A stretch of DNA of 64,000 bases from an uncultured Pseudomonadales bacterium (GCA_964429015.1 CAYSAM010000002.1:25158-89157), one strand, 5' to 3'. Shown: positions 4,012 through 63,136, counted from the stretch's first letter. Notes: a model not told the origin generated them from the letters alone. Program-made: numbers and translations.

Positions 4012-4976
4012 TACTTTCCGAGCAAAAACTGTAGACCTACAAACATCATATATACCCCAATCAAGGTTAAACCCTCCCAGCGCTCAAGTTTACGCTTAGA
4101 CTTTGTAAATACCCAAAACAGTCCAAGTATTAATATCAAAAACAATCCTGAAAGTCCTTTTCCCACAGAAGACTCAAAAGCAATAGGTGAAATCATACCT
4201 ACAATTCCCAATATAAAGGTTGAGTTTACTATTACACTCCCCAAAATATTCCCAAGCAAAAGTGAAGTATCTCTCTTTTCCGAAGCAAATATTGACAATG
4301 TAAGTTCTGGTAAAGTAGTCCCAAAAGAAACAACCAATAACCCAACCCAGTATGCGTTTACCCCAAAGTTTTTTGACAAGCCCAACGCCACATCTATTAG
4401 ATAATGCGAAGCAACAGCCATTGACACCAAAACAAAAAGTAACAGTAAAACATGTCCAATCCACGAACCCACACTTTTAATCTTTGTCTTCACTATTTTA
4501 TGTCTTTTAAGTCTACTATGTTTCAAAACATCTGCTTCTGCCACCATGCTTTTTGCGTAAAACATGTAAGCTATTACCAAAAGTAAACCATCAAGTCTAC
4601 TGAGCCTTCCATCCACCATAAGCAAAAAAGGCAACATCGACATTCCCATGGCCATCCATAAATCTCTACGCAAATAATCTCCCACCACAGGTATAGTCCC
4701 TGCCACAACAGCTGCCCCTCCCACAATCCAGCTTAGGTTTGCAAGATTCGCTCCAATTAAATTTCCAAGTGCAATCTGTGGCTCACCCTTTAAAGCTGAG
4801 GCAATTCCTACTGAAAACTCTGGCAATGACGTCGAAAAACTTACCAAAAAAGTAGCCAACAACAATTTATTTATCTTAACTTCGTGAGCAATTTTTTCAA
4901 AAATATCTACCGCCACACCAGAAAAAAACACCAATATCAAAATCAATAATATTCCCCAAAAAACTTCTCCTAACAT
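4008..4976 (-). CDS. Ca2+/cation antiporter (CaCA, YrbG-like Na+/Ca2+ exchanger)
   Basis: Two alpha-repeat motifs (GNLIGANLANL and GNILGSVIVNSTFILG) in a ~10-TM protein. Confidence 0.75.
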   Translation of the reverse strand: MLGEVFWGILLILILVFFSGVAVDIFEKIAHEVKINKLLLATFLVSFSTSLPEFSVGIASALKGEPQIALGNLIGANLANLSWIVGGAAVVAGTIPVVGDYLRRDLWMAMGMSMLPFLLMVDGRLSRLDGLLLVIAYMFYAKSMVAEADVLKHSRLKRHKIVKTKIKSVGSWIGHVLLLLFVLVSMAVASHYLIDVALGLSKNFGVNAYWVGLLVVSFGTTLPELTLSIFASEKRDTSLLLGNILGSVIVNSTFILGIVGMISPIAFESSVGKGLSGLFLILILGLFWVFTKSKRKLERWEGLTLIGVYMMFVGLQFLLGKY

Positions 4977-4995
4977 AACTTAATTAAAGCACACT

Positions 4996-5631
4996 TTACT
5001 TTTTCTTTCTCTTGGCAACTTCCACAAATATAGGAACTACTGACACAGCAATTATTCCCAAAACCATATAGTGAAAGTTTTCTTTTACTACTGGCAAGTT
5101 TCCAAACAAAAACCCACCACCCAAAAACAAAGTAACCCACAAAAACCCACCAACCAAGTTGTATTTTATAAAATCCCCGTAGTGCATCTTACTTATACCT
5201 GCCACAAATGGTGCAAAAGTGCGAACAATTGGCACAAAACGAGCAAAAACAATTGCTTTACCACCATGTTTAGCATAAAACTCTTCTGCTTGTTCTAAAT
5301 ACTCCTTTTTAAATATTTTACTTCTGCCATCAAAAACACTTTTCTCAAATTTATCCCCAATCCAATAATTTACAGTGTCACCAACAATTGCTGCTATAAG
5401 CAGTAAAGGATATAGAAGCCAAAAATTAAAACTACCTAACGCCGCCAAAGCACCAGAAGCAAAAAGCAAAGAATCTCCAGGCAAAAATGGAGTCACTACA
5501 AACCCTGTTTCCATAAAAACAACTAAAAATAAAATTCCATAAGTCAAAAAGCCATATTGGTTAGTTACCATAGCTAAGTTCTTATCTATATGCAAAAATA
5601 TATCTACCAGCTTTTTTATTGTTTCCATCAT
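4996..5631 (-). CDS. DedA/SNARE-associated family membrane protein
   Basis: VVFMETGFVVTPFLPGDSLLFASGALAA is the DedA signature; multi-TM. Confidence 0.8.
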   Translation of the reverse strand: MMETIKKLVDIFLHIDKNLAMVTNQYGFLTYGILFLVVFMETGFVVTPFLPGDSLLFASGALAALGSFNFWLLYPLLLIAAIVGDTVNYWIGDKFEKSVFDGRSKIFKKEYLEQAEEFYAKHGGKAIVFARFVPIVRTFAPFVAGISKMHYGDFIKYNLVGGFLWVTLFLGGGFLFGNLPVVKENFHYMVLGIIAVSVVPIFVEVAKRKKK

Positions 5632-5647
5632 CCTTATATTCTAATAC

Positions 5648-5722
5648 AGACGACAACATCTGTAATCTGTAATCTGTAACCTGTAATCTGTGATCTGTAA
5701 TCGATCTACGATCTACGATCTA
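5648..5722. repeat. Tandem 7-nt microrepeat array (CTGTAAT / CTACGAT units) between dedA and the ligase gene
   Basis: tctgtaatctgtaatctgtaacctgtaatctgtgatctgtaatcgatctacgatctacgatct read directly. The same unit family recurs at 453-481, 6655-6690, 22886-22925, 48593-48624, 51041-51072, 54464-54500 and 57281-57306. Confidence 0.8.
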
Positions 5723-7465
5723 AATCATTATATTCCCCGATATCTTCGCAATTCTCAACACTTCCTCCCAAGTCGTTGCTTGCTCAGATGCCTTGTCATC
5801 TCTAAATCGAACAAGCCTGGGAAACCGTAGAGCTAATCCTCCAGAGTGAGAAGGGCTTTTGGTAACCTCGTCTGCTGCAATCTCCACCACCACTTTAGGG
5901 CTCACCCACACATCGGGAGCCAAGCTTCCTTCTACCAAACAATTTTCTGGTTTTGTCACAACCTCCAAATTATCCAATCTTTTTCTAAGCTCCGTAAACT
6001 CTATGTCAGTTAAGCCAGTTCCAATCTTAGCAATCGACACCCACAAGTCACCCTTTTTAAGCCCGGCCAAAAATGCTCCCATACCAAATCCTGCTCGCTT
6101 CCCCCTACCGTAGTAATAACCCAAAACCACAAGGTCAAAAGTATCCGCCAATTTCCCACTTGTTCCTTCTGCCTCCTTAATTTTTACCCAGTTCCATCCT
6201 TGTCTACCAGGCAAATACTCACCACTCCACATCTTCATTACCGCCCCCTCATATCCCTCCTCCAAAAATCGAGTATGAATTTCTTCTAGTTCTACTGGGT
6301 CATTAGTTTTAACAAATTCATCCACTACCAAAACATCATTTTTCAAAATTATTTTCTTTAGTATCTCTCTCCTTTCAAAGTAGTTTTTCGAAAGCAAGCT
6401 TTCTCCGTTACAATACAAAACATCAAAAACAAAAAACCTCAAGGGAACACTAGCTGCGGCTTCCTCTACCCCATGCTTTCGCTTTCTTGTTATTGTCTCC
6501 TGAAAATTTAATATTCTTCCAGTCTTAGGATCATAACCAACAGCCTCGCAGTCCAAAATTAGTTCATCTGCATTTGTATACTCGGCCATTTTTTTAAGTT
6601 CCGGAAACATAGCACTACTCTCCTCCAAATTTCTAGTGAATGATTTCACCATACGTCTGTCATCTGTAATCTGTAAACTGTGATCTACATTTCTATCAAA
6701 ATGTATCTGCACTCTTGTCCCATCATACTTTGGTTCAATCGCTACTTCCCCCATATTTTTCACTATCTCTTCATATGTGTTAAGTCTTTGACATAGAGCT
6801 GGTACTATTGGAACGCCCACTTTTACTTTAATTTTTTTTAGTCCGTCCAAGCCCGCCTCTTTAAAAGCTCTCACTATCTCACCGGAGTCCGGATAAAGCT
6901 GATAAACTCTGTCTAGCTCTTTTCGCAAAGACTTATTTCCACTTTCTATCTGCGACAATGCATCAAAAACCGTCTTTTCCGAAAATCCCAAACGCAGCTT
7001 ACCCATCACCATTCGTACTACAAACTTTCCCTCCAAAAACGATAATTTGTTTATAAGCTTCGATAGTTTATTTACTTTCAACTCTTGGCTACCAGTACCC
7101 TCAAAGTAAGCTATTTCACTCAAGTCATCAAATACTTCATCCAAACTAATACTCTGTATTTTTTTGTCTTCTCCAAAATTTACTACCACTTCACCCAAAT
7201 CTCCAACTCGTTTATATTCTTTTTCCACCTCTTCAGTACTTTTGCCAAAGGCCAAGGCCACAGATCGAATCACCATCTTAGCTGCCATACTAAATTCTCT
7301 GTTATCAAATATCGGCCCCAACAAGCCCTGAGTCAAATAGATACCTTTGGCTGCCTCACCAACCTCAAATTTCCCAATAAGATCAGCAAGCACCACAGTA
7401 ATCTCTAGTCGAGATGAAATCTTTTCTAGTTTTTCTAAGTACTCTGCAAATTCTCTAAACAACAT
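5720..7465 (-). CDS. ATP-dependent DNA ligase (Lig1/archaeal-eukaryal type, DBD + adenylation + OB domains)
   Basis: Motif I KYDGTRVQIH (KxDGxR). 581 aa with an N-terminal DNA-binding domain, and EGAVMK (motif IV-like) further on. Confidence 0.85.
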   Translation of the reverse strand: MLFREFAEYLEKLEKISSRLEITVVLADLIGKFEVGEAAKGIYLTQGLLGPIFDNREFSMAAKMVIRSVALAFGKSTEEVEKEYKRVGDLGEVVVNFGEDKKIQSISLDEVFDDLSEIAYFEGTGSQELKVNKLSKLINKLSFLEGKFVVRMVMGKLRLGFSEKTVFDALSQIESGNKSLRKELDRVYQLYPDSGEIVRAFKEAGLDGLKKIKVKVGVPIVPALCQRLNTYEEIVKNMGEVAIEPKYDGTRVQIHFDRNVDHSLQITDDRRMVKSFTRNLEESSAMFPELKKMAEYTNADELILDCEAVGYDPKTGRILNFQETITRKRKHGVEEAAASVPLRFFVFDVLYCNGESLLSKNYFERREILKKIILKNDVLVVDEFVKTNDPVELEEIHTRFLEEGYEGAVMKMWSGEYLPGRQGWNWVKIKEAEGTSGKLADTFDLVVLGYYYGRGKRAGFGMGAFLAGLKKGDLWVSIAKIGTGLTDIEFTELRKRLDNLEVVTKPENCLVEGSLAPDVWVSPKVVVEIAADEVTKSPSHSGGLALRFPRLVRFRDDKASEQATTWEEVLRIAKISGNIMI

Positions 7466-7494
7466 ACTGCTAGTATACCAACTCTACTACGGTG

Positions 7495-9306
7495 TCATTT
7501 CACCACACTAACAGATTTTGTAGCAACATTACCCTTATTGTCAGTAACAGTTACCTTTATGGTGTGCGAACCCTTTGAAATATTCCAAGTTACCTTCGAG
7601 TATTCACAAACTGTTACCCTAGTACAAGTCTTAACTTTTGTGGAGTCAAAATAAATACTTATTGTTTTTATACCACTAGAATCACTTGCCGTTGATTTAA
7701 TCAAAAACTTGCTCACTCCACTTATATTCGTACCATTTACTGGTTTAGAAATAGTCACCACAGGTGCTTGAGTATCCGAAGTTGTAGGTGTTGGAGTCAC
7801 GGTTGTTGTTGGAATAGTTGTTGTTCCGCAAGGAAATGCCCCTACATAAGTACCATTCTCACCAGCGTTACAAGCGGGAGATAAAGGGTCTAGATGAAAA
7901 TTACCAAGCGCTGCATTCACAAACAAAGGTTTAGAAGTATCCTGAATCGTACTGTGCATATCTAATCCATACCTCTGCTGCCACTCTAAAAATGTTAAAT
8001 ATGTAAACGCAGAAGATCCTGTAGTAGCCAAGTTAGTCTTATCTTGTAGTATAAAACGCCCAACAGGAGAATAAAAATTATAATCCATCTTTGTACCAGT
8101 TGTTTTTATATTCATATTTATTGCGTTTTTATTCACAACAATATTATTTTTTACAGTCCAGTTATTGGACGGCCATGCATCTACTGGGTAGTACTCACCA
8201 ATTCCAATTCCAGAGTACATACCAGTAGAGTTTGTTGCGTAGTAAATTGTATTATTATTGACCGTTAATCCCGTTTGGCCTGTAGAAGTTATTCCAACAT
8301 TTAATGTGCCAAACATTACATTGTTACGAATTATCGTATGTGTATCTTTGTCTCGCCACTCAAGCTTACCCGCAGTAAAAAAGTCTGGTCCATTTCCAGT
8401 TCCACTTACGTGAATAGCAATATTTTGGTTTTTGAAAGTATTCCACTCAACCACAGAGTCAAAAGCGTTTTCTAATTCAATACCCATATCACAATTAGTA
8501 AATGAATTGTTTTTAATCAAAAAACGAGTAACTGGAGTACCAGCGCCATCAGCATCAACACATTTTCCAGAATCGTGAATATTATTTCCATCAATCACAA
8601 TATTGTCTGTTCTATCCATCGACCAAATACCACGGTTGGAATAACCGTAGATATTATTATTGCGGTATGTGTTGTTATAGCTAGTTGCATACCAATCCTG
8701 CACGCCATTTTCCCAATAATTCTTTCCGTTAAACTCACAATTTTCAACAAGGTTGTCATGACCATAATACTTAAGATTACCCTCCACGTAGCAATTTCGG
8801 ACAATAAAACCATTATTTCCAAGAGTTTTGTCGGTGGCACTCCAAGTTGTTCCCTGGCCAAAATACAAAGTTGCTAAATTACCAGTATTGGCAGTCGAAA
8901 TAAACCTAAATCCGTCAATAATATAATAGTGAACATTATTAGTTGTCACTATTGTTTTTTCTGAGCCCGAGTTTACAGTACATCCTTTTTGAGTTGCGCA
9001 CCTTAGTGTAACTGGGGCAGTAGCTACACCTGAATTTTTAATAGTTAAAGATTCGTTATATATACCACTGGCAACCTCACACATTTCACCTGCTTTCACC
9101 ATATTTAAACACTTTTGTATTGTCTTAAAAGGCAAGGCAGATGTGCCTGTGTTAGTATCGCTCCCTGTCGAGGAAACGTAATATGTGGTTGTAGATAGAC
9201 CAAGAACACTCCTAAATCTAGAATACCTAAAAACAAAAAATACCAAACATATGAAAAAAACAGTCAAAACTAAAAAATAACCATCAACTTTCTTTTTCTT
9301 AGCCAT
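7495..9306 (-). CDS. Secreted/anchored right-handed parallel beta-helix protein (pectate-lyase-like fold) with a C-terminal Ig-like domain
   Basis: N-terminal TM/signal (FLVLTVFFICLVFFVF). Repeated N-rich beta-helix rungs (NNIYGYSNRG, DGNNIHDSG, IRNNVMFG, NNNTIYYATN). Thr/Pro linker TTTVTPTPTTSDTQAP followed by a ~90-aa beta-sandwich-like tail. Confidence 0.6.
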   Translation of the reverse strand: MAKKKKVDGYFLVLTVFFICLVFFVFRYSRFRSVLGLSTTTYYVSSTGSDTNTGTSALPFKTIQKCLNMVKAGEMCEVASGIYNESLTIKNSGVATAPVTLRCATQKGCTVNSGSEKTIVTTNNVHYYIIDGFRFISTANTGNLATLYFGQGTTWSATDKTLGNNGFIVRNCYVEGNLKYYGHDNLVENCEFNGKNYWENGVQDWYATSYNNTYRNNNIYGYSNRGIWSMDRTDNIVIDGNNIHDSGKCVDADGAGTPVTRFLIKNNSFTNCDMGIELENAFDSVVEWNTFKNQNIAIHVSGTGNGPDFFTAGKLEWRDKDTHTIIRNNVMFGTLNVGITSTGQTGLTVNNNTIYYATNSTGMYSGIGIGEYYPVDAWPSNNWTVKNNIVVNKNAINMNIKTTGTKMDYNFYSPVGRFILQDKTNLATTGSSAFTYLTFLEWQQRYGLDMHSTIQDTSKPLFVNAALGNFHLDPLSPACNAGENGTYVGAFPCGTTTIPTTTVTPTPTTSDTQAPVVTISKPVNGTNISGVSKFLIKSTASDSSGIKTISIYFDSTKVKTCTRVTVCEYSKVTWNISKGSHTIKVTVTDNKGNVATKSVSVVK

Positions 9307-9354
9307 AAGACCAATATACTCGGGTTTATTTCTTTTTGCTAGACAAAAAATTTA

Positions 9355-10455
9355 CTATCTAAAGCTCTTCACCTTCCCCAACACATAAACAGCGCCTTTA
9401 GTTTTTCCCCGCTTTCTTATCATCTTTTTAGCTACCAAATCTTTAAGATCACGCAAAATAGTATCATCAGAAACCAAAGGTAGTACTTGTCTTAATTCCT
9501 TAATTGTCAATTGTCCTTTAACGGTCAACTCTTCCATCAACGCTACTTGTCTTTCAGTCAAAGCCACAGCTCTACCCGCTTCAGTTTTATACTTCACCGA
9601 TTCTCCAGTCACACTCATCACCCTCAATTTATTTTTCTCACAAGCCGCCGCAAAAACATCCACAACTAGTTCCATAAGCAAGCTCATACCATCTTCAGAA
9701 TCAGAAACCGTTGCCAAAGTATGAAAAAGTTTTTCCTTAATCTTAAAAAGTTCTTCTTCAATAGCACAAAGTCCCAAGTTATAACCACCCATCTCAATCG
9801 TCATCATCATATACAAAAATGCTGTTATCAAGTTGCTATGCAAAAATGGCCTTATCCTCATCAATTCATAAAAAATTACTACACCTTTTAGTACTGGATG
9901 TATTTTTTCTGGCAAAGCTGTTTTATACCAAAGCAAAACATCTTCCAGCTGAAACAAAACTTCATGAGTTTTTGGGTGTGAAATAGCAGAACCCTCAACA
10001 AACGAGTCTTTCCTCCAATCTCCCAAACTCTCAGCAGCAATCAATCTCTCACCAAGCATTTTATTTATCGAAACAAGATCTTTTTCTCCCACCTCATTTT
10101 GTTTAAATTTTGTCGACAGATAAACAATCTGCTCCACCAACCTACTTGCATTTACCCAGTTAAGGGCTGCTTGCAACTCACTTTCTTTGACAACAAGCTC
10201 TAATCTCTTGGCAACATCAGAAGTTTGTTCGTCTCTTCCTGGCTCATCAAAAACAATTTTCGAAACAGTTTCCGTATCCAAACTAATCCCCAAAAACCTA
10301 AGTGAATTTACCAACCTCTTTACAATTACCTCTTTTTTTAATCTACTCTGCCACTCTATAGGAACTTCAATGTTTTTAATAATATTCAAGTCAAGCTCTA
10401 CCTTAATAAGGCTAGTAAGTAAACGGTTGGATATCTCGTACTTAGGAAAAAACAC
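9355..10455 (-). CDS. Fic-like protein with degenerate active-site motif and C-terminal winged-helix domain
   Basis: Size and architecture match typical ~370-aa Fic proteins. The core segment IRPFLHSNLITAFL aligns to HPFx(D/E)GNGRxxR, but the catalytic His is replaced by Arg and G/G/R are missing. The C-terminus LTERQVALMEELTVKGQLTIKELRQVL...RDLKDLVAKKMI is wHTH-like. Confidence 0.4.
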   Translation of the reverse strand: MFFPKYEISNRLLTSLIKVELDLNIIKNIEVPIEWQSRLKKEVIVKRLVNSLRFLGISLDTETVSKIVFDEPGRDEQTSDVAKRLELVVKESELQAALNWVNASRLVEQIVYLSTKFKQNEVGEKDLVSINKMLGERLIAAESLGDWRKDSFVEGSAISHPKTHEVLFQLEDVLLWYKTALPEKIHPVLKGVVIFYELMRIRPFLHSNLITAFLYMMMTIEMGGYNLGLCAIEEELFKIKEKLFHTLATVSDSEDGMSLLMELVVDVFAAACEKNKLRVMSVTGESVKYKTEAGRAVALTERQVALMEELTVKGQLTIKELRQVLPLVSDDTILRDLKDLVAKKMIRKRGKTKGAVYVLGKVKSFR

Positions 10456-10485
10456 TAACTTTATTTTCGCATTTCTTGCGGAAAA

Positions 10486-11352
10486 TCACAATCTACTAAT
10501 CACCTCTCCATACGCCAAGGGAATATTCTCTGCTAAATCTTGAGCACTAAACATCAAGCTTCGCTCATCCATCAACTTTTTGCCTGCCATCTTAATTAGA
10601 TATGAGGAATAAGCGCAAGACATCAAAGGGTTGTCCTTCGCCAAAAAACCCAAAGCCAATCCTGCTGTTACATCTCCTACACCACCCTTTACCAAACCAT
10701 CACTACCACCCCCAATAGCTACAACTTTGTTACCATCAGTAACTAAAGATGTTTCATCTTTTGTCAAAATTACAATCTCGTGTTTTTTAGCAATCTCCAA
10801 AATAATCTCTGCTCTTAATGAAACCTCACTTGGCAAATCAACACCAAACAACATCTCAAACTCCTTCTGGTTAGGGGTAACAATCGCCCCTTTAGGGATT
10901 TCATTAGCTGCAACCACTTGCAACGCACCACCATCCACAATCCATTTTTTATTAGGAAACTTTTTAAACAAACCAATCGTCAAATCCCGTGTTTTTTGCC
11001 CCTCATCATCACAAACAAACCCATGCTCTTTTATATGGCTTCTCATCATTCCAGGGCCAATCAAAACAGCATCAGACTTTTCTATATAGCCATCAATATC
11101 GTCTTCAGGAATCCACACAAAAGCTTGTACCTCACTTTTAATTTTATTTACCGCCTCAGCATCGTCTTTAGGACTAGCAAAATAAACCATGCCTACAATT
11201 CGAGAACACGCCTTAAGCGACATAATAGGTGCACCATGGAAAAGACTACTGCCACCCACAATTACTACTTGCCCACCCGAAAACTTACTTTTTGTATCTT
11301 TAAAAGTTTTAGAGTCTAAAAACCATTTTTCCTCAAATTTCTCTATTATCAT
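10486..11352 (-). CDS. nnrD: ADP-dependent NAD(P)H-hydrate dehydratase (YjeF C-terminal / carbohydrate-kinase-like domain)
   Basis: GGSSLFHGAPIMSLKACSRIVGMVYFA, VLIGPGM and VVAIGGGSDGLVKGGVGDVTAGLALG match the YjeF_C family. Confidence 0.7.
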   Translation of the reverse strand: MIIEKFEEKWFLDSKTFKDTKSKFSGGQVVIVGGSSLFHGAPIMSLKACSRIVGMVYFASPKDDAEAVNKIKSEVQAFVWIPEDDIDGYIEKSDAVLIGPGMMRSHIKEHGFVCDDEGQKTRDLTIGLFKKFPNKKWIVDGGALQVVAANEIPKGAIVTPNQKEFEMLFGVDLPSEVSLRAEIILEIAKKHEIVILTKDETSLVTDGNKVVAIGGGSDGLVKGGVGDVTAGLALGFLAKDNPLMSCAYSSYLIKMAGKKLMDERSLMFSAQDLAENIPLAYGEVISRL

Positions 11353-11371
11353 TTCATATATATTCTACTCC

Positions 11372-11412
11372 CGTCATTGCGAGGCGCGACTTTAGGTTGG
11401 CCGCGGCAATCC
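11372..11412. repeat. Dispersed imperfect-palindrome element (TCGTCATTGCGAG...CCGCGGCAATC), copy 1
   Basis: ccgtcattgcgaggcgcgactttaggttggccgcggcaatcc: ATTGCGAG and CGGCAAT arms are reverse complements around a GC-rich core. Copies at about 43168-43205, 48564-48592, 53313-53350 and 56430-56503. Confidence 0.75.
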
Positions 11413-11435
11413 AGTCAAATTGATACAATATAACT

Positions 11436-11699
11436 ATGAAATCCAAACCAGCCAAAAAACCCATTCACCAAAAAGTTGCCGCCCAAACGCTAACCCTCAT
11501 TACTACTTCCTTAGGTTTAGTTGCGGCTCTAGCTTGGAACGAAGCCATCACTGAGTACGTCAATATCTACATCAAACCTCGCTTTGCAAACGGCTCGGGA
11601 GTTATCTCTCTTTTTGTTTATGCTTTAGCCATCACCATTTTTACCGTCTTTCTTTCTTACCAGCTCAACAAAATCACCAAAAAAATCACCAAGCAATGA
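11436..11699 (+). CDS. Small membrane protein (2 TM), hypothetical
   Basis: 87 aa, two hydrophobic helices. Its stop overlaps the next start (ATGA). Confidence 0.35.
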   Translation: MKSKPAKKPIHQKVAAQTLTLITTSLGLVAALAWNEAITEYVNIYIKPRFANGSGVISLFVYALAITIFTVFLSYQLNKITKKITKQ

Positions 11700-12103
11700 A
11701 AATAGATGGTCTTCTTAAGGAACTGAGAGCACTAAAAATTCCAAGGGATGAAATGGCGATAACATCATCTGGCCCAATTGGAATAAGAGGTTTAAGAGAA
11801 ATAGGCGACTTAGATATCATCGTTACATCAAAAATCTGGGACAAGCTTTCAAGAAAATACAAAATAACCAAAGAGGATAATTTTGAATCAATTTTTATAG
11901 GTAATATTCAAGTTCTAGGAAATGGCTCCTGGTTCACAGATATTCAATATGGTTCTGTGGAAGATGATATTAAAAATGCTGACATTATCGATAATAATAG
12001 ATATGTTAAGCTAGAAAAGATCTTAATGATCAAAAAAATGAAAGACCGTCAAAAAGACATCGATGACGTGAAACTAATAGAAAGACATCTTAACAAGTCT
12101 TAA
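11696..12103 (+). CDS. Minimal nucleotidyltransferase-fold protein
   Basis: SSGPIGIRGLREIGDLDII fits the GS-x(9-13)-DxD motif of Pol-beta-superfamily minimal NTases. Confidence 0.35.
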   Translation: MKIDGLLKELRALKIPRDEMAITSSGPIGIRGLREIGDLDIIVTSKIWDKLSRKYKITKEDNFESIFIGNIQVLGNGSWFTDIQYGSVEDDIKNADIIDNNRYVKLEKILMIKKMKDRQKDIDDVKLIERHLNKS

Positions 12104-56522: not shown

Positions 56523-57278
56523 ATGACCTGCCCACAATGTCACGATAGTCTAAATAAACTAGAAGTAAGCACCACCGATGGTCAAGTGAGAAAAATAGAC
56601 GAGTGCTTAAACTGTGGTGGACATTTTTTAGACAATTATCTTGTCAACTTTATTTCAGTCGAAACAGCCCGGAACATCGACTCTGTTCTTCCCAAAAAAC
56701 ACCTCCCCACAGTATCCGAACCAAAATGTTTCCATTGTGGTCAAGTTATGTTTGCAATCTCCGATGACTCCACTCCCAAAACCGTCACTGTCTACAACTG
56801 TCCCAACAACCACGGTGATTTTTTTCCCAAAGGTCAACTCCTCCTTTTCAAAAAAGCTCAAGACGCCAAAATAAACTATCACAAACTCTGGGGAATCCCT
56901 CTCAAAACTGCCTTCTCAGTAATCATTCCCCTTTTTATTATCTTCACCTCAGTTACGGTCCTACCCTCAGTTGTTAAAGAACTCAATCAGAGTACCGAAA
57001 ATCGCGTCAAAGCTTCTGAAATACTTACCGAACCTCTCATTACTCCCATCTCAGACAATCAAGTCCTCATTTCTTTCTCCACCAAAAACAAAGTACCCAC
57101 CAACCTTATTTTTACTTCAGGTATAAACAAAACTTTTACTGTTTCAGAGCAACCAAAAACAAGCCACTTAGTTAGTATCGAAAACCTTCCTCCTGCCACC
57201 ACTTTTAAATACACAATCGTTATAGATCCACAAGGTAAAAATCTCAAAACCTCAGAATACTCCTTCTCTACCCCCTAA
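56523..57278 (+). CDS. Zinc-ribbon membrane protein with a C-terminal FN3-like beta-sandwich domain, hypothetical
   Basis: Two CxxC...CxxC ribbons (CPQCH...CLNCG; CFHCG...CPNNHG), one TM (FSVIIPLFIIFTSVTVL) and a beta-rich tail. Confidence 0.4.
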   Translation: MTCPQCHDSLNKLEVSTTDGQVRKIDECLNCGGHFLDNYLVNFISVETARNIDSVLPKKHLPTVSEPKCFHCGQVMFAISDDSTPKTVTVYNCPNNHGDFFPKGQLLLFKKAQDAKINYHKLWGIPLKTAFSVIIPLFIIFTSVTVLPSVVKELNQSTENRVKASEILTEPLITPISDNQVLISFSTKNKVPTNLIFTSGINKTFTVSEQPKTSHLVSIENLPPATTFKYTIVIDPQGKNLKTSEYSFSTP

Positions 57279-57318: not shown

Positions 57319-58068
57319 ATGCCCCGCCAACTTTCTCCTTACGAAAAAAACTTTCTAACCAAACACCACTTTGATTTAAACTTACCGGAACTCCAAACCG
57401 AAATACCAGTAGAATATTTAGTTGGCAAAGCTGAATTTCGAGGGCTAGACTTTTTTGTCAATAACTCTACTCTAATTCCCAGAATAGAAACAGAAAAAAT
57501 AGTTGATCTTGCACTAGAAAATATTATGGAAAAATTCTCTACTCGCAACAAAATAATCATTGCTGATGTTTGTACAGGATCGGGGTGTATTGGAGTCTCA
57601 CTTGCCTTAGAACTCGTAAAGCACAACTATGACTTTCATGTCTATTTTTCTGATATTTCCCAAGAAGCACTCAAAATTGCCCAAAAAAACTTTAGTTATT
57701 TTTTACCTGACTATAAAAATTTCGCCTCATTTTTATATTCAAATCTTTTTGACAAATATCCATTGGATACAAACATAGACCTAGTTCTCTCAAACCCTCC
57801 CTACATTCCAAGCAACAGAATAAAAACACTAGATGTCTCCGTCAAAAACTATGAACCAATAACTGCCCTAGATGGCGGACAAGATGGGCTTTTATTTATC
57901 AATAAAATTATAGATGACTTGGCAAACATCCAAAACAAGGTTAACGCAATTATCGAGATAGATGAGATTCATACATTGCAAGATATAAAAAAAAGCGAGA
58001 GCTACAAACTCTCGCTTATCAAAGACACGTTCGGTGTCAATCGCTTCTTATCTCTTTTTTCTTTTTAA
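57319..58068 (+). CDS. prmC: Release-factor glutamine N5-methyltransferase (PrmC/HemK)
   Basis: SAM motif VCTGSGCIG and the NPPY motif LSNPPYIP. Confidence 0.8.
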   Translation: MPRQLSPYEKNFLTKHHFDLNLPELQTEIPVEYLVGKAEFRGLDFFVNNSTLIPRIETEKIVDLALENIMEKFSTRNKIIIADVCTGSGCIGVSLALELVKHNYDFHVYFSDISQEALKIAQKNFSYFLPDYKNFASFLYSNLFDKYPLDTNIDLVLSNPPYIPSNRIKTLDVSVKNYEPITALDGGQDGLLFINKIIDDLANIQNKVNAIIEIDEIHTLQDIKKSESYKLSLIKDTFGVNRFLSLFSF

Positions 58069-58322
58069 AACTTTTTTCTTGGCTTTTACCACTTGAGTTT
58101 TAACTTTAGCTACTTGAGCTTTACCTTTTTTAACAGCTTTTTTTACTTCACCAGCAACCATCTCTCTATTTTCTTTTTTACTAAGAAACATTCCCGCTAC
58201 TCCAGCAGCTACACCAATAACAGCAGCTCCTACGGCAGCGAACAAATTCATATTATTTTTTTTGGCAGGCATTTTTGTTTTTTTGCTTACTAACTTTTAA
58301 TAAATTCATTATGCCACAAAAA

Positions 58323-58356
58323 CAAAATCTCTGCAAAAAAAAGCCCCCTGTAAAAA
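58323..58356 (-). terminator. Rho-independent terminator of the vWA/kinase/phosphatase operon
   Basis: On the minus strand: GCCCCCTTG-TTTTTA-CAGGGGGC hairpin followed by TTTTTTTT, 25 nt after the vWA stop codon. Confidence 0.5.
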
Positions 58357-58382
58357 CAAGGGGGCGAGAAAATAAAATTAAA

Positions 58383-59207
58383 CTACGGCTGTCCAAAACC
58401 ACCAGCAGCGGCTTGTGAAAACGGCTTTGCGCCCTGACTTCCGCGAGCAGCTGTCTGAGAGAACGTACCAAAATTCAAGCGAATATCATGCTTGTTTGCG
58501 GTCGTGGTGAGAATCCATTTGTCCTGGATACCCATCCGCTTAAACACATCACGGAAGTCAGTACCATGTTTATCTTGGATACCCATAGCAGACACAATAT
58601 GTGTTTCATCTTGGAGAATCTCTGACACAATATCTTTCACACTTTCAGGGGTAGTAAACCGCCTACTGTGCTGGTCATAACCGTCAGTTACGATTAAGGT
58701 GGCAGAGCGAACAGGCTTTCCGCGATTTGAAAATTCCTGCGTCTTAGCCATAAGGTCCCCCAAGGCAACGACAGACATATCATAAAGAGGAGTTCCACCA
58801 TTAGCCTGATAGTTGCTTGCATCCAAAACTGGAACCTGAGCTATCGGGGTAAAGGGAATAACGACTGTACCATTCAAGTAACGTACGCACATAAGTACAG
58901 CATTGTTTGAATTACTTTCCATAAGCGCTTCACGAACAACATTAACCCCATCACGAATTGCTTGTTCGTTTCCAGCTTCAGCAATCGATCCAGAGTCATC
59001 AACCAGAATGGTAACCAAATAAACCTCATTTGGCCCCTTTACGTCAACTGCAGGAACGCCCATTGCCTGATTGATTTGGTTAGCGATATCAGGAATTGAA
59101 AAAACGCTAACCGCCGCTTTTGACAGCACACCATCTTCATGTGCAGAGCCAAACAAACTTTGTACATTTGCAATACCAGCAGCTTTAGAACTATTTTGTG
59201 GGTTCAT
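58383..59207 (-). CDS. vWA-domain protein (TerY-like)
   Basis: MIDAS DxSxS in VTILVDDSGSI; GGTPLYDM; TLIVTDGYD. 274 aa with a Gln/Ala/Gly-rich C-terminal tail. Confidence 0.7.
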   Translation of the reverse strand: MNPQNSSKAAGIANVQSLFGSAHEDGVLSKAAVSVFSIPDIANQINQAMGVPAVDVKGPNEVYLVTILVDDSGSIAEAGNEQAIRDGVNVVREALMESNSNNAVLMCVRYLNGTVVIPFTPIAQVPVLDASNYQANGGTPLYDMSVVALGDLMAKTQEFSNRGKPVRSATLIVTDGYDQHSRRFTTPESVKDIVSEILQDETHIVSAMGIQDKHGTDFRDVFKRMGIQDKWILTTTANKHDIRLNFGTFSQTAARGSQGAKPFSQAAAGGFGQP

Positions 59208-59234
59208 TTTTTATCTCCTTTAGACAGTACCAAC

Positions 59235-60263
59235 TTAGAACTTAATTCCCGGCCACGATTCAATCGGGTCGGTTGATTTCACGATATTCATGCCGGCTTT
59301 GGCAAAACGTTTGAATGCCGCGTCTGCAGCATCGGTGTGATCAACCACACCAGGAACGACAACAGGGCTTGTACAATCTTCCAACAAGTAAACTTTCTTA
59401 GCCAAAGTAGGATCAACAGCATTAATTTCGTCTAAGAAATCCGCAACTGTCCACGCTACACAATGACTCTTAGCTTGGCCAGCAATTGCGAGGTAGTCGT
59501 ATGCCTGTAGTTTCTTCACAAAGCCAGTGCTCTTCTGTGCAATCGCCTGTTTCATGGCAAAAAGAACTTCACCACGCAGCGCAGAATAGTTCTCAGATAA
59601 AACATTTCCACCCTTGATTTCATCTCCTGCGTCGACTTCGCGAGCCACATTATGGAAAAATACGGCTTCGTGCAAGGAAGCAACAAGTGCATGACCAATA
59701 CCACCGAGCATTGCGTGATATGGCCAAATTGTCAACTTATAACGACCGGCAGCTTCAAGTTGAGCTGTATACTCCAACAAGTAAGCTTGCAACCAAGCAT
59801 AGTTAACACCTGGAACACGACCAACAACACCAGGATTAATCATCCATTTGCCTTTTCTTACATCATCATTACTAATTTCAGTGTATGGAGCCGGGTGGTT
59901 TCCTCTTCCATCAACAATAAACATTGCATGGAAGATTTGCTGGATGTAGTGTGTGTCAAAAGTTAGTTCAATTCCGGAAATACGTCTCATCTCACGATAA
60001 ATCATTTCCGTCAAGCGTCGAATATCATCGACTGCGCCATTACCAGATCGACCACCAACAAAAAGTTCAAATCCGGGTGAACAAAAAGTGTTCTGAGCAT
60101 CAATGATCATCAAGCCAAAGCGTTTGGCATCTCGAGAAGATGGGGGGATGTTGTACTTTCTAGCCCAGTTTGGAGCATCAGTAGCCAGTTTTTCATATTT
60201 TGGTTCCCAGATCTTTCCAACGGCCTTCGGATCATAGTGAGCAGGTAAAGGTAAACTAGACAT
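59235..60263 (-). CDS. Isochorismatase/nicotinamidase-family cysteine hydrolase with a large internal insertion
   Basis: LMIIDAQNTFC (DxQxDF-C). Catalytic Cys context LAIAGQAKSHCVAWTVADF. 342 aa, whereas ~190 aa is typical. Confidence 0.55.
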   Translation of the reverse strand: MSSLPLPAHYDPKAVGKIWEPKYEKLATDAPNWARKYNIPPSSRDAKRFGLMIIDAQNTFCSPGFELFVGGRSGNGAVDDIRRLTEMIYREMRRISGIELTFDTHYIQQIFHAMFIVDGRGNHPAPYTEISNDDVRKGKWMINPGVVGRVPGVNYAWLQAYLLEYTAQLEAAGRYKLTIWPYHAMLGGIGHALVASLHEAVFFHNVAREVDAGDEIKGGNVLSENYSALRGEVLFAMKQAIAQKSTGFVKKLQAYDYLAIAGQAKSHCVAWTVADFLDEINAVDPTLAKKVYLLEDCTSPVVVPGVVDHTDAADAAFKRFAKAGMNIVKSTDPIESWPGIKF

Positions 60264-60278
60264 TTTTTTCTCCTATTT

Positions 60279-62147
60279 TTATTTTATTGTTAGACTTAGA
60301 ATTTCTTTTTTTCTTATAACCAAAACACCACTCGAACTTGGAAGTAGGAATGAGTTTTTGTCAACATATGGCTCAGTATCCGGAAACACTTTTGTCTGTG
60401 TAACTTTTCCAGATACTATCTCAGAACGAACCAACCCCTCATCAGTAGCACTCAGTATAAAATTACCAACAGGAAGTTTGCCCCTGATATTTCCCAACCA
60501 AGAGCCATCACCTTCATCAGTTTCAGCCACTGCTTCAATTTCCCCCAGTGAGTTAATTACCTGTAAACGGTTTAGCAACTTTGGACCATTTTTTTCAGTG
60601 GTCATAAACCACGCCCGCGTGCTAGTAAAAACACAGGTAGAATCAACAAGCTGACCACGTGTCGGAGTAATATTCACAGAGTCATTTATTCCAGACCTAT
60701 CAGCGTCAAATGTAAATGCCCTGGTTAGATTCCCAACACGATAGAAACCAAAACCAAAACTTTCTCCAACCCAAAACATTGTCTGGCCCTCGAGCACTGT
60801 ACCTATTGGTTCAGGTCCAACATCTTCATCTCTGTATAAGATACCTCCACTAGCCCAGTACCTGTGTCTGGAATTGGCATCAATAAGTGGTAAGTTTCCA
60901 AAACTATCAACTGGAATATTATCAATGACCTTACCACCTTCTAAAACCACCATACGCCCATCTCTCGCAAGTATTGTCTTCTTCCCCGACACACGATATC
61001 GCAACCCAGGATCAAGATCTCCTACCAGAGCTACACTTCCACCTTCTCTGATGAAGTTCCCGTCTTCATGGAAGATATATTTCAAGGTTCCATTTTGGAC
61101 AGTTGCGTATATTACTACACCCCTAGTTTGAAAAAGAAAATCAATCTTTACAGAGCCGCGAATTTGAGTTACTTTCTTTGAAGCAACACCCTTTAAACAG
61201 TTTGGGCATATAGCCCTAGCATGCTCAATACCACAGTTGGAACATTTCTCAAAATTGATATCTAGTAATCTTAGGGGGAACTCTCCTCTCCAGCCTTTTT
61301 CAAAAGTTCTTGAAAAAATTTCCAAGAGCTCATCAGGCAAAATATTAAGTTGAGGTGCGTCCTTTGGATACTTCACCGCAGAGTTAAAAACACTAATGCC
61401 TCGCAAGGGTCTTTCGTCTAGCAGAACCTTTCTCATTTTATTTTTTGCAATATAAACGCCACCATAAGGCCTCACAAACAGCAAAGCTTCCATCAACATC
61501 GCCATATATGCATACCAATCAGAGTTTCTATCATGAGGTCTAATTAGCATCATCGATTTCAGGTTTGGATCACATAGCCGAGGATCCACGTAGTTCGCTG
61601 TAAACAGCTGGCTTAGATATTTCGAATTTCCCATACTATCAGCGTCAACAATTCTGCAAACTCCTTGTTTGAGTAATACATTCAAACTATTAAAATCAGA
61701 AATTACCCCACCAGCGTCTTCATGAACTTGTTTTACTGTAGGATGCAAATCGCGAAAATATCCCAACATTGCGTTGTTTCCAATACCTCCCCTTGTACGA
61801 AACTCAGGATCGAGGTATTTAAGCATCGGCTCAAAGCCTTTAAGTTTCTCCATAGAATAGCCCAATACCTTCTTCTCGTTTGCGTCAGTCAAAAGACTAA
61901 GTGGTATAACCACCTTTGAAGGAAGTTTTGAAAAGGGAAACTCTCTAAGTTTCGTCTGATGAACAGCTATCCTTTCTCTGGCACGTTCTTGTTGAACTGG
62001 ATCCTTTGAATATGTTGGGTCATCTGGAAGTTTGTAAATTTTGGCCAGTTTCTTCGGACCAATATCATAGATATACGCCTCACCTCCTTCACTAAAAAGT
62101 ATGTCGAGGAGAATTCGCATACTACCATCATAAGCAACTCTATACAT
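60279..62147 (-). CDS. Atypical Ser/Thr protein-kinase-like protein with a central zinc ribbon and a ~300-aa C-terminal domain of unknown function
   Basis: Kinase-like subdomains: SEGGEAYIY (Gly-rich loop-like), LAKIYK (VAIK-like), ISDFNSLNVLL (HRD/catalytic-loop-like D...N), VDADSMG (DFG-like). Zinc ribbon CSNCG...CPNCL. Confidence 0.6.
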   Translation of the reverse strand: MYRVAYDGSMRILLDILFSEGGEAYIYDIGPKKLAKIYKLPDDPTYSKDPVQQERARERIAVHQTKLREFPFSKLPSKVVIPLSLLTDANEKKVLGYSMEKLKGFEPMLKYLDPEFRTRGGIGNNAMLGYFRDLHPTVKQVHEDAGGVISDFNSLNVLLKQGVCRIVDADSMGNSKYLSQLFTANYVDPRLCDPNLKSMMLIRPHDRNSDWYAYMAMLMEALLFVRPYGGVYIAKNKMRKVLLDERPLRGISVFNSAVKYPKDAPQLNILPDELLEIFSRTFEKGWRGEFPLRLLDINFEKCSNCGIEHARAICPNCLKGVASKKVTQIRGSVKIDFLFQTRGVVIYATVQNGTLKYIFHEDGNFIREGGSVALVGDLDPGLRYRVSGKKTILARDGRMVVLEGGKVIDNIPVDSFGNLPLIDANSRHRYWASGGILYRDEDVGPEPIGTVLEGQTMFWVGESFGFGFYRVGNLTRAFTFDADRSGINDSVNITPTRGQLVDSTCVFTSTRAWFMTTEKNGPKLLNRLQVINSLGEIEAVAETDEGDGSWLGNIRGKLPVGNFILSATDEGLVRSEIVSGKVTQTKVFPDTEPYVDKNSFLLPSSSGVLVIRKKEILSLTIK

Positions 62148-62156
62148 TCCGACCTC

Positions 62157-63008
62157 CTAAATTCTACTAGCCGTTACGATAGCCAAATCATCAGTTAAGA
62201 CTGGTGGGTAAATTTTTACTCGTTCATCTTTCCAGTTTATGACTCGCTTCTCACTAGCAAGCAAATTTAATCTTCCAACCAAATTACTTCGATTGTCGAA
62301 ATACGACACATTCTTCCAAAAATCTTCTGGATCTGCAATTTCAGTTGTTCCTGGCACACACTTTTTACTATCATTAAAAAACCCTTTAAGTCCATCCGTC
62401 GCCACCATTGCCGAATTTACGGTATTAGTTGAAGCAACTTTTTTAACCCTAATTTTTAAATCATCCGGAGCCATAACCTTTAGGCTTGTTTCGATCAAAT
62501 TGTACCCCAAGGCGGTAGGAAAATTATCTCTTGCGTCTGGTATCATTTCAAATTTCACGCCGTTCAAATAATAATACCCATCACCAACCCCAACGAACAG
62601 CGTAATATCTGGCGTGACTATCATACCTACAAGGGTGAACAAAAAGTAGCTCACAATATTATTGTGGTAGCTTCCACCTATTCCTCGAGCAATACTATCA
62701 ATTTCTCCCAGGGTATGCTTCTGAATATCTGCCCAAAAATTTTCATTTTGAAGGTAGAAGTTCCAGCGCCACTTAGAAATACTTTCAAGTCGGGAAACAA
62801 CATAGTTTGTTACAATTCCAACTCCAACTCTAGACCCCACTTCAGTATAAGTCTCAAAGGGAAAATTGCTATTTGAACAACCATCGGCAACAAACGACAC
62901 CATCAGATCTTTTTTTTCTTTTACTAAATACGCATCTTGGCAGTTCTTTTTTACCTTCACATGATCACCACCAATTACACTACCATGGCTATATCTCAGA
63001 GGAATCAT
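62157..63008 (-). CDS. PP2C-family Ser/Thr protein phosphatase
   Basis: QDAYL, VADGCS (metal-binding DG motif), GDGYYY and VATDGL (the C-terminal metal-binding D). Confidence 0.75.
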   Translation of the reverse strand: MIPLRYSHGSVIGGDHVKVKKNCQDAYLVKEKKDLMVSFVADGCSNSNFPFETYTEVGSRVGVGIVTNYVVSRLESISKWRWNFYLQNENFWADIQKHTLGEIDSIARGIGGSYHNNIVSYFLFTLVGMIVTPDITLFVGVGDGYYYLNGVKFEMIPDARDNFPTALGYNLIETSLKVMAPDDLKIRVKKVASTNTVNSAMVATDGLKGFFNDSKKCVPGTTEIADPEDFWKNVSYFDNRSNLVGRLNLLASEKRVINWKDERVKIYPPVLTDDLAIVTASRI

Positions 63009-63136
63009 CGTTTCTCCTTACTATATTTTATTATAAAAGTTCTAATACCCCACACTTAGTGTATTTATGACACAATTATAGCCCACTTTTCTTTATTGTC
63101 AATAGCAAGCTAACACAAGTCAGGTATACTTAACTC

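Follow-up and report, generated by a model that had tools for sequence, protein, structure and literature searches.

A stretch of 64,000 nucleotides from an uncultured Pseudomonadales bacterium (GCA_964429015.1 CAYSAM010000002.1:25158-89157), called the window below, carries a four-gene operon on its minus strand. Running from a promoter and operator to a terminator, the operon encodes a PP2C-family phosphatase, a kinase, a nicotinamidase and a vWA-domain protein. The kinase gene, which is the main subject here, occupies positions 60279-62147 on the minus strand, starts with ATG and encodes 622 residues. The original prediction, made from the DNA alone, had placed a kinase-like protein with a zinc ribbon and a large uncharacterised C-terminal domain at exactly these coordinates, and all the motifs that it quoted (AKIYK, SDFNSLNVLL, VDADSMG and the ribbon CSNCGIEHARAICPNCL) are present in the translation. 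What it could not see is that the kinase belongs to a TerY-P-type triad, which is joined to a nicotinamidase under an NrtR operator.

The kinase domain

The kinase domain (residues 1-295; 61263..62147, minus strand) was delimited by alignment, an AlphaFold2 model, and Foldseek, Pfam and hhalign comparisons. Conservation was judged from an alignment of 28 homologues at 43-69% identity. In the G-loop GEGGEA (residues 19-24), three positions (G21, E23 and A24) are invariant, and the conservation of G19 is 90% or higher. AKIYK contains K36 and K39, SDFNSLNVLL contains D151 and N156, and VDADSMG contains D168 and D170. All six residues, together with H142, F152 and N153, are invariant. D168-A-D170 stands in the place of DFG, T183...D188-P189 takes the position of GT..APE, and S209-D210-W211 represents subdomain IX. 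Because they are conserved across the homologues, the quoted motifs are selected features and not chance matches. The original prediction had spoken of kinase 'remnants' and had left the conservation of the catalytic residues to a comparison of homologues. Its protein-kinase-like N-terminus is borne out by the fold, the Foldseek matches and the homology to YegI described below, but 'remnants' is not the right word, because the full catalytic set (K36, D151, N156, D168 and D170) is invariant. The C-terminal half of the protein also contains many invariant residues.

Sequence searches alone were not decisive, and structure prediction was therefore used. When the full-length sequence and the family profile were compared with the Protein Data Bank (PDB), the only kinase matches were marginal ones to TTK, PKC-theta and RIO2 (E ~0.06), and the ribbon matched Nop10. 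Pfam Pkinase matches 24 of the 28 family members (best E 8e-7). When ten members were scanned singly, seven matched Pkinase with 13.5-24.2 bits, all under the cut-off. RIO1 matches nine of the 28 members, and the match to the Kdo family is weak. Scans with PADLOC and NCBIfam did not help to identify the kinase. The AlphaFold2 model, calculated from the alignment, has a mean predicted local distance difference test score (pLDDT) of 90.5, and only the linker residues 319-325 are poorly modelled. Its predicted template modelling score (pTM) is just 0.54, so that the relative placement of the kinase and propeller halves is uncertain. The N-terminal half is modelled as a protein-kinase fold. Its Foldseek matches in the PDB are AAK1, CaMKII, GAK, Aurora B, PKA and PknG, with E values of 1e-7 to 1e-5 and target template modelling scores of 0.5-0.6.

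The closest characterised relative is YegI of Escherichia coli. The family profile aligns with YegI in hhalign at 98.4% probability (E 6.7e-15) over residues 18-321, ribbon included, and K36, D151 and D168 of the window protein align with K39, D141 and D159 of YegI. Both proteins have a GxGGE G-loop, a GDxNxxN catalytic loop and a D-x-D sequence instead of DFG. YegI is an active, Mn2+-preferring Ser/Thr kinase that autophosphorylates, for which K39, D141 and both aspartates of DSD, its DFG substitute, are essential (10.1101/819920); the PP2C phosphatase encoded next to it, PphC, dephosphorylates it. N156, the Mg-binding Asn of the catalytic loop, is present in the window protein and missing from YegI. 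Because the equivalents of the YegI-essential residues (K36, D151 and D168-A-D170) are kept and N156 is found in addition, the window protein is expected, as far as its sequence tells, to be an active Ser/Thr protein kinase of the YegI type. The two proteins differ beyond the ribbon. According to the YegI report (10.1101/819920), YegI runs on into a two-pass membrane region, which has a weak HhH match, whereas the window protein is soluble and has a propeller.

At least 324 relatives of the kinase were found in a search of 5.8 billion proteins. Among the 120 relatives listed, nearly all are ~620 residues long and align end to end. They come from the candidate phyla radiation (CPR)/Patescibacteria, cyanobacteria and other lineages, and most are unnamed or inconsistently labelled ('hypothetical', 'Bud32', 'H/ACA RNP subunit 3', 'serine/threonine protein kinase').

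The zinc ribbon and the β-propeller

The Cys4 zinc ribbon that follows the kinase domain (residues 300-318; 61194..61250, minus strand) was delimited by its conservation in the alignment. The four cysteines of CSNCGIEHARAICPNCL, namely C302, C305, C314 and C317, are each at least 90% conserved in the 28 sequences, in agreement with the ribbon originally proposed, and H309 and R311 are conserved too. The ribbon weakly matches the Nop10 and DZR zinc-ribbon families, and hhalign aligns it with the C..H..CPWC segment of YegI.

The remainder of the protein (residues 326-622; 60282..61172, minus strand) is modelled with a pLDDT of ~90 as a seven-bladed β-propeller. The 29 strands between residues 327 and 621 form seven four-stranded blades and one closing strand. 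The Foldseek counterparts of the C-terminal half are the seven-bladed propellers of the clathrin heavy-chain N-terminal domain, DDB1 BPB and WDR91. The best-conserved stretches are Q455-T-x-F-W459-x-G461...G465-F-G-F-Y469-R, G547(D)GSW550L and F588-P-D-T-E-P-x-V595. The original prediction had described ~300 β-rich residues with no recognisable motif, and the segment is indeed all-β. No Pfam, NCBIfam or PADLOC model matches the propeller of the window protein, and no Pfam or NCBIfam repeat family matches it in the 28 homologues. The weak Pfam match TCAD9, found in 4 of the 28 members, was considered as a name for the propeller and rejected, because it maps to the kinase catalytic loop and lies far under threshold.

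A phmmer search with residues 326-622 against 1.84 billion representative proteins retrieved 555 representatives, the best 150 of which are the C-termini of ~620-residue proteins or short fragments. Taken with the lack of model matches, this result indicates that the propeller belongs to a common fold class, yet to a sequence family that is not annotated and is tied to the YegI-type kinase. The specificity to the system that the original prediction had suggested for this domain is thus retained. We infer that the propeller represents a new sequence family of kinase-attached docking or sensor domains. The description as a system-specific domain for sensing or for binding a partner is reasonable, with ligand binding as a candidate role only.

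Partner proteins

The first gene of the operon (62157..63008, minus strand) encodes a 283-residue PP2C-family Ser/Thr phosphatase. It matches Pfam PF13672 (PP2C_2) with an E value of 8e-13, as befits the adjacent PP2C that the original prediction had named, and E. coli PphC falls in the same Pfam family. When the protein is aligned with 24 cassette homologues and PphC, residues D25, D42, G43, D143, D205, D273 and D274 are invariant. With the invariant aspartates read as the metal-binding set common to PphC, the phosphatase looks active.

The third gene (59235..60263, minus strand) encodes a 342-residue protein with an isochorismatase fold, assigned from its motifs and from profile comparison with the PDB as a long-form PncA-type enzyme. 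The catalytic triad D55, K217 and C268 and the metal ligands D103, H105 and H183 are invariant in 25 homologues. The best PDB match of the profile is Mycobacterium tuberculosis PncA (3pl1), which is aligned over exactly those motifs, and the Pfam Isochorismatase model matches 8 of the 25 family members. The protein is thus a predicted nicotinamidase. A homologue with 57% identity is found outside the cassette in a KSB1 metagenome-assembled genome (MAG; locus L087), where a nicotinate phosphoribosyltransferase gene (NF006415, E 4e-152) lies two genes downstream. This locus (5884-9580) consists of the long-form nicotinamidase, a 434-residue M6-type metalloprotease-like protein and pncB; the metalloprotease-like domain matches TIGR03296 with an E value of 2e-13, which is under the cut-off. 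Some loci have longer cassette nicotinamidase homologues of ~580-615 residues (P0292, at 6001-7749 of L086, and long open reading frames (ORFs) in L027 and L042). The N-terminal extension of P0292, ~240 residues long, has no meaningful match in Pfam, NCBIfam or the PDB.

The fourth gene (58383..59207, minus strand) encodes a 274-residue vWA-domain protein, identified by its metal ion-dependent adhesion site (MIDAS) motif, its AlphaFold2 model and Foldseek. The MIDAS is complete (D70-x-S72-x-S74, T139 and D175) and all of its residues are invariant. The model has a pLDDT of 92.5 and a pTM of 0.90, and its top Foldseek matches are CMG2, TEM8, the integrin alpha-M I-domain and C2a vWA domains (E 2e-7). 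Three conserved Ser-Gln pairs (S250-Q, S257-Q and S264-Q) lie on the last canonical helix and on an extra C-terminal helix. The Pfam VWA models match only one of 27 family members, weakly, and leave the window protein unrecognised. The hhalign probability for the family against YegL of E. coli is 12.5%.

Conservation and distribution of the cassette

Scanning a single genome for each of 185,579 species gave 364 loci with a relative of the kinase. Eighty of these were compared with the window and with four contigs encoding homologues, 85 loci in all. PP2C is present in 80 of the 85, the nicotinamidase in 82 and the vWA protein in 77; the missing genes are mostly explained by contig ends. The order is always PP2C, kinase, nicotinamidase, vWA. 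The vWA family has 277 matches, compared to at least 324 for the kinase family, which is consistent with their co-distribution. The hosts include many groups of Patescibacteria, cyanobacteria, Planctomycetota, Acidobacteriota, Gemmatimonadota, Sorangium, gammaproteobacterial MAGs and one Aenigmatarchaeota MAG. This patchy distribution across phyla suggests horizontal transfer.

A separate set consisted of 15 IMG/VR contigs labelled viral, 42-545 kb in length, ten of which exceed 200 kb. All four genes are present in 13 of them, mostly in the usual order, and L091 and L100 are rearranged or interrupted. A phage-borne origin of the cassette, to which the viral labels might point, was considered and not adopted, because the neighbours that were scanned look cellular or uninformative: OmpA, an ABC transporter, Ogg, a major-vault-protein-like gene, PrimPol-HTH and AAA. 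These contigs, which include L089-L100, may be either huge phages or misclassified cellular sequences. One contig, L101 (IMG/VR 3300028840_008160, 4995-11937), has the order pncB-nadE-PP2C-kinase-nicotinamidase-vWA. Its kinase is a full-length variant with ribbon and propeller that is 26% identical to the window protein (hhalign E 1e-60). L103 likewise has a deeply divergent version of the whole cassette, with a kinase 25-26% identical, and neither L101 nor L103 has nrtR or the operator.

No full-length homologue of the kinase was found in GenBank phage records, and divergent relatives of the kinase domain occur in only two huge-phage records. The first, LR745208.1 (L104), a 485-kb 'uncultured phage', has a rearranged relative of the cassette at 3386-10635, with the gene order short PncA-like, vWA, Cys-rich 592-residue protein, 211-residue protein, PP2C, 123-residue ORF and YegI-type kinase. 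Its PncA-like gene keeps D, DxH, WPxH, K and C, and the MIDAS of its vWA protein reads DATGS. The kinase lacks the zinc ribbon, and its β-rich tail differs from the propeller. The second record, LR756511.1 (L105, 595 kb), has vWA, PP2C and kinase genes.

In some loci the cassette is interrupted by small, apparently selfish inserts (L075 9836-11180; L054 9916-10521; L001 5170-5820 and 10999-11604). Thus, an ORF of 201 residues with a D...EAK nuclease-like motif splits the kinase from the nicotinamidase in Pseudanabaena/Leptolyngbya loci; L075 also has an apparent pair of a small antitoxin and a PIN-like toxin, and L001 has Uma2-family genes. Immune-type genes directly adjoin the cassette in two loci of the cyanobacterial type, namely a NACHT NTPase in one and GmrSD_N with an AAA_15/DUF2813-type ATPase in the other (L002 11133-13277; L088 1-1986). 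These NACHT and GmrSD/AAA_15 neighbours are the sole hint from the gene context at a location in defence islands.

The operator and the link to NAD+

A sigma-70-type promoter (TTGACA, 16 nt, TATAAT) lies at 63075..63102 on the minus strand and is the sole match at 12 of 12 positions between 57900 and 63300. A motif search located an NrtR-type operator, TTGTGTCATAAATACACTA, at 63057..63075. It is a TAGTGT-N7-ACACTA palindrome with one mismatch, and the only site with one mismatch or less in the window. The first base of the operator coincides with the final base of the -10 box, ~50 nt upstream of the PP2C start codon, where a repressor site would be expected. At the other end of the operon, inspection of the sequence revealed an intrinsic-terminator-like hairpin with a T-run (58344..58363, minus strand), 20 nt past the stop codon of the vWA gene.

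The operators described for NrtR are palindromes of 21 bp built around a GT-N7-AC core, and ADP-ribose frees NrtR from DNA (PMC2330246). An nrtR gene is found in the flanks of 54 of the 85 loci, mostly immediately upstream of the cassette and transcribed either away from it or in the same direction. Its product combines a Nudix domain with NrtR_WHD (E 1e-25) and is named 'ADPR responsive transcriptional repressor' in NCBIfam. The consensus TAGTGT-N7-ACACTA emerged from a palindrome search of the regions upstream of the cassette. In the 80 loci that were scored, a site lies upstream of the cassette in 69 with up to two mismatches and in 61 with up to one, often as a pair spaced by 23-26 bp. The zones from -400 to +80, 38.4 kb in total, hold 39 perfect sites, compared to 4 in the remaining 1.25 Mb, an enrichment of ~317-fold. 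The site is kept in 17 of the 26 loci whose flanks hold no nrtR. Furthermore, 18 of the 85 loci, mostly of Pseudanabaena-like cyanobacteria, contain a gene for an ADP-ribosylglycohydrolase (ARG), which is mostly situated between PP2C and the kinase.

Because an NrtR-type operator overlies the promoter, the operon is predicted to be repressed until ADP-ribose releases NrtR. In CPR bacteria, cyanobacteria, myxobacteria and other hosts, the cassette is predicted to belong to a regulon of the NrtR type, and in the source organism it would be inducible by ADP-ribose.

Other features of the window

The G+C content at 58000-62000 is 0.41-0.425 with a GC skew of -0.15 to -0.19, compared to mostly 0.36-0.40 and -0.23 to -0.42 in nearly all the other 2-kb bins; the plus strand of the whole window has a strongly negative skew. 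The difference between the cassette and its surroundings is compatible with horizontal acquisition.

A gene of 74 codons at 58048-58272 (minus strand) follows the terminator. It was considered as a further member of the operon and judged probably not to belong to it, because it has a promoter-like site of its own (58337-58308) and a strong terminator (58017-57993). Only the three loci nearest to the window (L005-L007) contain relatives of this ORF, at a distance of 1.3-1.6 kb downstream from the cassette. Its product has one hydrophobic helix and a Lys-rich tail. An ORF of 251 codons at 56523-57278 (plus strand) starts with several CxxC/CxxH pairs in the pattern CPQC...CLNC...CFHC...CPNNH, after which come a hydrophobic segment and a β-rich tail, and its product looks like a zinc-ribbon membrane protein.

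Relationship to known systems

By its published definition (Anantharaman, Iyer and Aravind 2012, cited in PMC11090510 and PMC4978471), the TerY-P triad consists of a vWA protein, a PP2C and a Ser/Thr kinase with a zinc ribbon. The kinase, PP2C and vWA genes of the window fit this definition. The same three components are encoded together in E. coli as YegI (kinase with zinc ribbon), PphC (YegK; a PP2C_2 phosphatase) and YegL (a vWA protein with MIDAS). However, YegL barely aligns with the window vWA protein, and the gene order differs between E. coli and the window loci. The E. coli yegI locus has no annotated nicotinamidase or nrtR gene, whereas the window-type cassette has both a nicotinamidase and the operator.

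The TerY-P defence system of Gao et al. (2020), as outlined in PMC11090510, likewise combines vWA, PP2C and a Ser/Thr kinase, but its kinase is followed by an OB fold. In the TerY-P modules of CoCoNuT systems of types II and III-A, the kinase has a C-terminal zinc ribbon only (PMC11090510), whereas the window kinase has a ribbon and a propeller. Unlike these defence and CoCoNuT forms, the window-type cassette has no link to McrBC or a nuclease, and contains the nicotinamidase and the NrtR operator. Kaur et al. (2020, PMC7159879) described an actinobacterial kinase with a zinc ribbon and a β-strand-rich domain, which is encoded with a PP2C and a stand-alone vWA protein beside GAP1-N2 GTPases. 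It occurs in actinobacteria only, in association with GAP1-N2, and a nicotinamidase or NrtR link is not reported for it. Its β-rich domain might be a counterpart of the window propeller; the best 150 of the 555 phmmer matches of the propeller all belong to the ~620-residue family or are fragments.

The NrtR regulons of Rodionov et al. (2008, PMC2330246) have a Nudix and winged-helix regulator beside its target and a GT-N7-AC operator over the promoter, as found here. Their targets include pncA-type genes, like that of the cassette, and draG, which encodes an ADP-ribosylglycohydrolase, as an alternative. The published list comprises nadABCDE, pncAB, nadV, prs, pnuC/nadR, niaP, pentose-utilisation genes, draG and nrtX-nrtY (PMC2330246). 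A term search of that paper found neither 'phosphatase' nor 'Willebrand', and the few instances of 'kinase' there concern sugar kinases, ribose-phosphate pyrophosphokinase and nicotinamide riboside kinase. Iyer et al. (2022, PMC9503650, section 3.8) described ARG-centred systems that have several parts in common with the window-type cassette: a phosphatase, a vWA 'chaperone', a glycohydrolase (in 18 of the 85 loci here) and a Nudix-HTH regulator for which ADP-ribose sensing is predicted. In the window-type cassette, however, the core is formed by the kinase, PP2C, nicotinamidase and vWA protein, the glycohydrolase is optional and the phosphatase is of a different class.

Searches of the literature for combinations of NrtR, PP2C and vWA, of vWA, PP2C, kinase and isochorismatase, and of NrtR, phage and defence, as well as for YegI, returned no description of the cassette. 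The propeller family, the fixed union of the triad with a PncA-type nicotinamidase, the membership in an NrtR-type regulon and the divergent huge-phage relatives were not found in that literature.

Proposed function and alternatives

The operon is probably an ADP-ribose-inducible NAD-salvage unit, gated by a phospho-switch of the kinase, PP2C and vWA protein, with the propeller as a docking or sensing platform; we give this interpretation somewhat better than even chances. NrtR would hold the operon off until cleavage of NAD+ yields ADP-ribose, which would lift NrtR from the DNA. The nicotinamide set free alongside ADP-ribose would then be turned by the nicotinamidase into nicotinate, which feeds the Preiss-Handler resynthesis. 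This response would be gated by a reversible switch made up of the kinase, PP2C and vWA protein, in which the kinase autophosphorylates and also phosphorylates a partner, and PP2C reverses the reaction. The best guess for the partner is the Ser-Gln-rich C-terminal helices of the vWA protein, with the nicotinamidase as the other candidate. The propeller would give the kinase its specificity. The corresponding last helix of integrin I-domains is coupled to whether the MIDAS is open or closed. Phosphorylation of the vWA C-terminal helices by a kinase docked via its propeller would thus alter the binding preference of the vWA protein, which PP2C would restore. Candidate ligands of the MIDAS are conserved acidic loops in the propeller, such as F-P-D-T-E-P.

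Several observations weigh against this interpretation. The genes nrtR, pncB and nadE are absent from the window, and because nrtR is absent, the regulator, if present, must be encoded elsewhere in the genome. Many loci have two copies of the operator; the window has a single one, which contains one mismatch. Both nrtR and the upstream operator are absent from all 15 IMG/VR loci, one of which (L093) has a palindrome between the kinase and nicotinamidase genes, and NrtR control is therefore not universal. The nicotinamidase of L087 occurs without the triad, so there is no intrinsic need of such an enzyme for phospho-control. Action of the kinase on the vWA protein or the nicotinamidase is a best guess, and an effect on nicotinamidase activity is likewise presumed. 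Finally, two features of the kinase itself are unfavourable. The window protein scores 14.9 bits (E 0.018) against the Pfam Pkinase gathering threshold of 31.7 bits, and the position of the αC Glu (helix 50-69) is variable in the alignment.

These last two features are what would be expected of a pseudokinase scaffold that only binds nucleotide, while its propeller and ribbon assemble the other three proteins. Such a scaffold is most improbable, the least likely of the explanations considered, because the Lys, the catalytic Asp and both aspartates of D-x-D, all of them essential in YegI, as well as the Mg-binding Asn, are invariant across phyla. YegI itself deviates at the αC Glu, where it has Asp, and is nevertheless active (10.1101/819920). 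A kinase that phosphorylates a metabolite of the NAD pathway, for instance a riboside or ADP-ribose, would suit the salvage context of the genes; the protein-kinase-like fold does cover metabolite kinases, and the RIO1 and Kdo matches, though weak, point the same way. We nonetheless consider it very unlikely. YegI is an autophosphorylating protein kinase, the obligate partner PP2C is a protein phosphatase, and the substrate-lobe motifs of protein kinases (T183...D188-P189 and S209-D210-W211) are kept. Furthermore, the Foldseek matches listed for the N-terminal half are protein kinases, with no metabolite kinase among them.

The remaining alternatives concern the role of the whole cassette. It might act in anti-phage defence or abortive infection of the TerY-P kind, in which the propeller senses infection, the switch fires and the nicotinamidase diverts nicotinamide, blocking the reconstitution of NAD+ by the phage. 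TerY-P-like modules have been reported both as defence systems in their own right and as adjuncts of type IV restriction systems (PMC11090510; PMC4978471), and the spread of the cassette is patchy yet cross-phylum, with 364 matches in the 185,579 species genomes, one of them from a DPANN archaeon. The NACHT or GmrSD/AAA_15 genes next to some loci, the divergent versions in huge-phage records and the slightly elevated G+C content of the cassette would all agree with such a role. However, PADLOC models match none of the four cassette proteins at E values up to 1, and the neighbours are housekeeping genes in the window and at most loci. A nicotinamidase is no obviously toxic effector and pairs with pncB and nadE in salvage arrangements, and the control by a metabolic repressor is conserved. 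A defence function is therefore held to be rather unlikely, although it is the strongest of these competitors. Still more doubtful is a role in countering protein ADP-ribosylation, in which ADP-ribosylated proteins would be ligands of the vWA protein and the propeller, and the freed ADP-ribose and nicotinamide would be handled by the enzymes. Systems of ARG, a Nudix/WYL factor, a phosphatase and vWA have been predicted to reverse viral ADP-ribosylation (PMC9503650). In line with this idea, an ADP_ribosyl_GH gene is found in the 18 loci mentioned, mostly inside the operon, and an NrtR-type regulator and operator are present. But the glycohydrolase is absent from the window and from ~80% of the loci, and must therefore be accessory and not core. 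The phosphatases of PMC9503650 are of the rhodanese-phosphatase, calcineurin-like, HD and HAD types, and the terms PP2C, nicotinamidase and PncA gave no match when its text was searched for them.

The interpretation as an inducible salvage operon can be extended, tentatively and against the odds, to a general NAD+-homeostasis checkpoint of bacteria, a DPANN archaeon and huge phages. The propeller-kinase would read the breakdown of NAD+, by sensing ADP-ribose, nicotinamide or ADP-ribosylated proteins, and, together with the PP2C and vWA proteins, would switch the Preiss-Handler recycling that the nicotinamidase initiates. The phage copies would then represent a fourth kind of NAD+-reconstitution counter-defence.

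Implications

To our knowledge, the physiological role of TerY-P triads is enigmatic, and this holds for E. coli too, despite the biochemical characterisation of YegI and PphC. The cassette ties such a triad, in a fixed order across many phyla, to a nicotinamidase, to NrtR and ADP-ribose, and to NAD+ turnover, which is central to the conflict between phages and bacteria. The nicotinamidase can be assayed simply, and NrtR and ADP-ribose are a known regulator and effector. The cassette is among the few elaborate signalling modules retained in small CPR genomes, which suggests that the recycling of NAD+ is critical there. The cassette suggests that NAD+ salvage in bacteria may be under post-translational control by phosphorylation. 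If the checkpoint interpretation is true, the TerY-P/YegI-PphC-YegL triad would gain its first concrete biochemical output.

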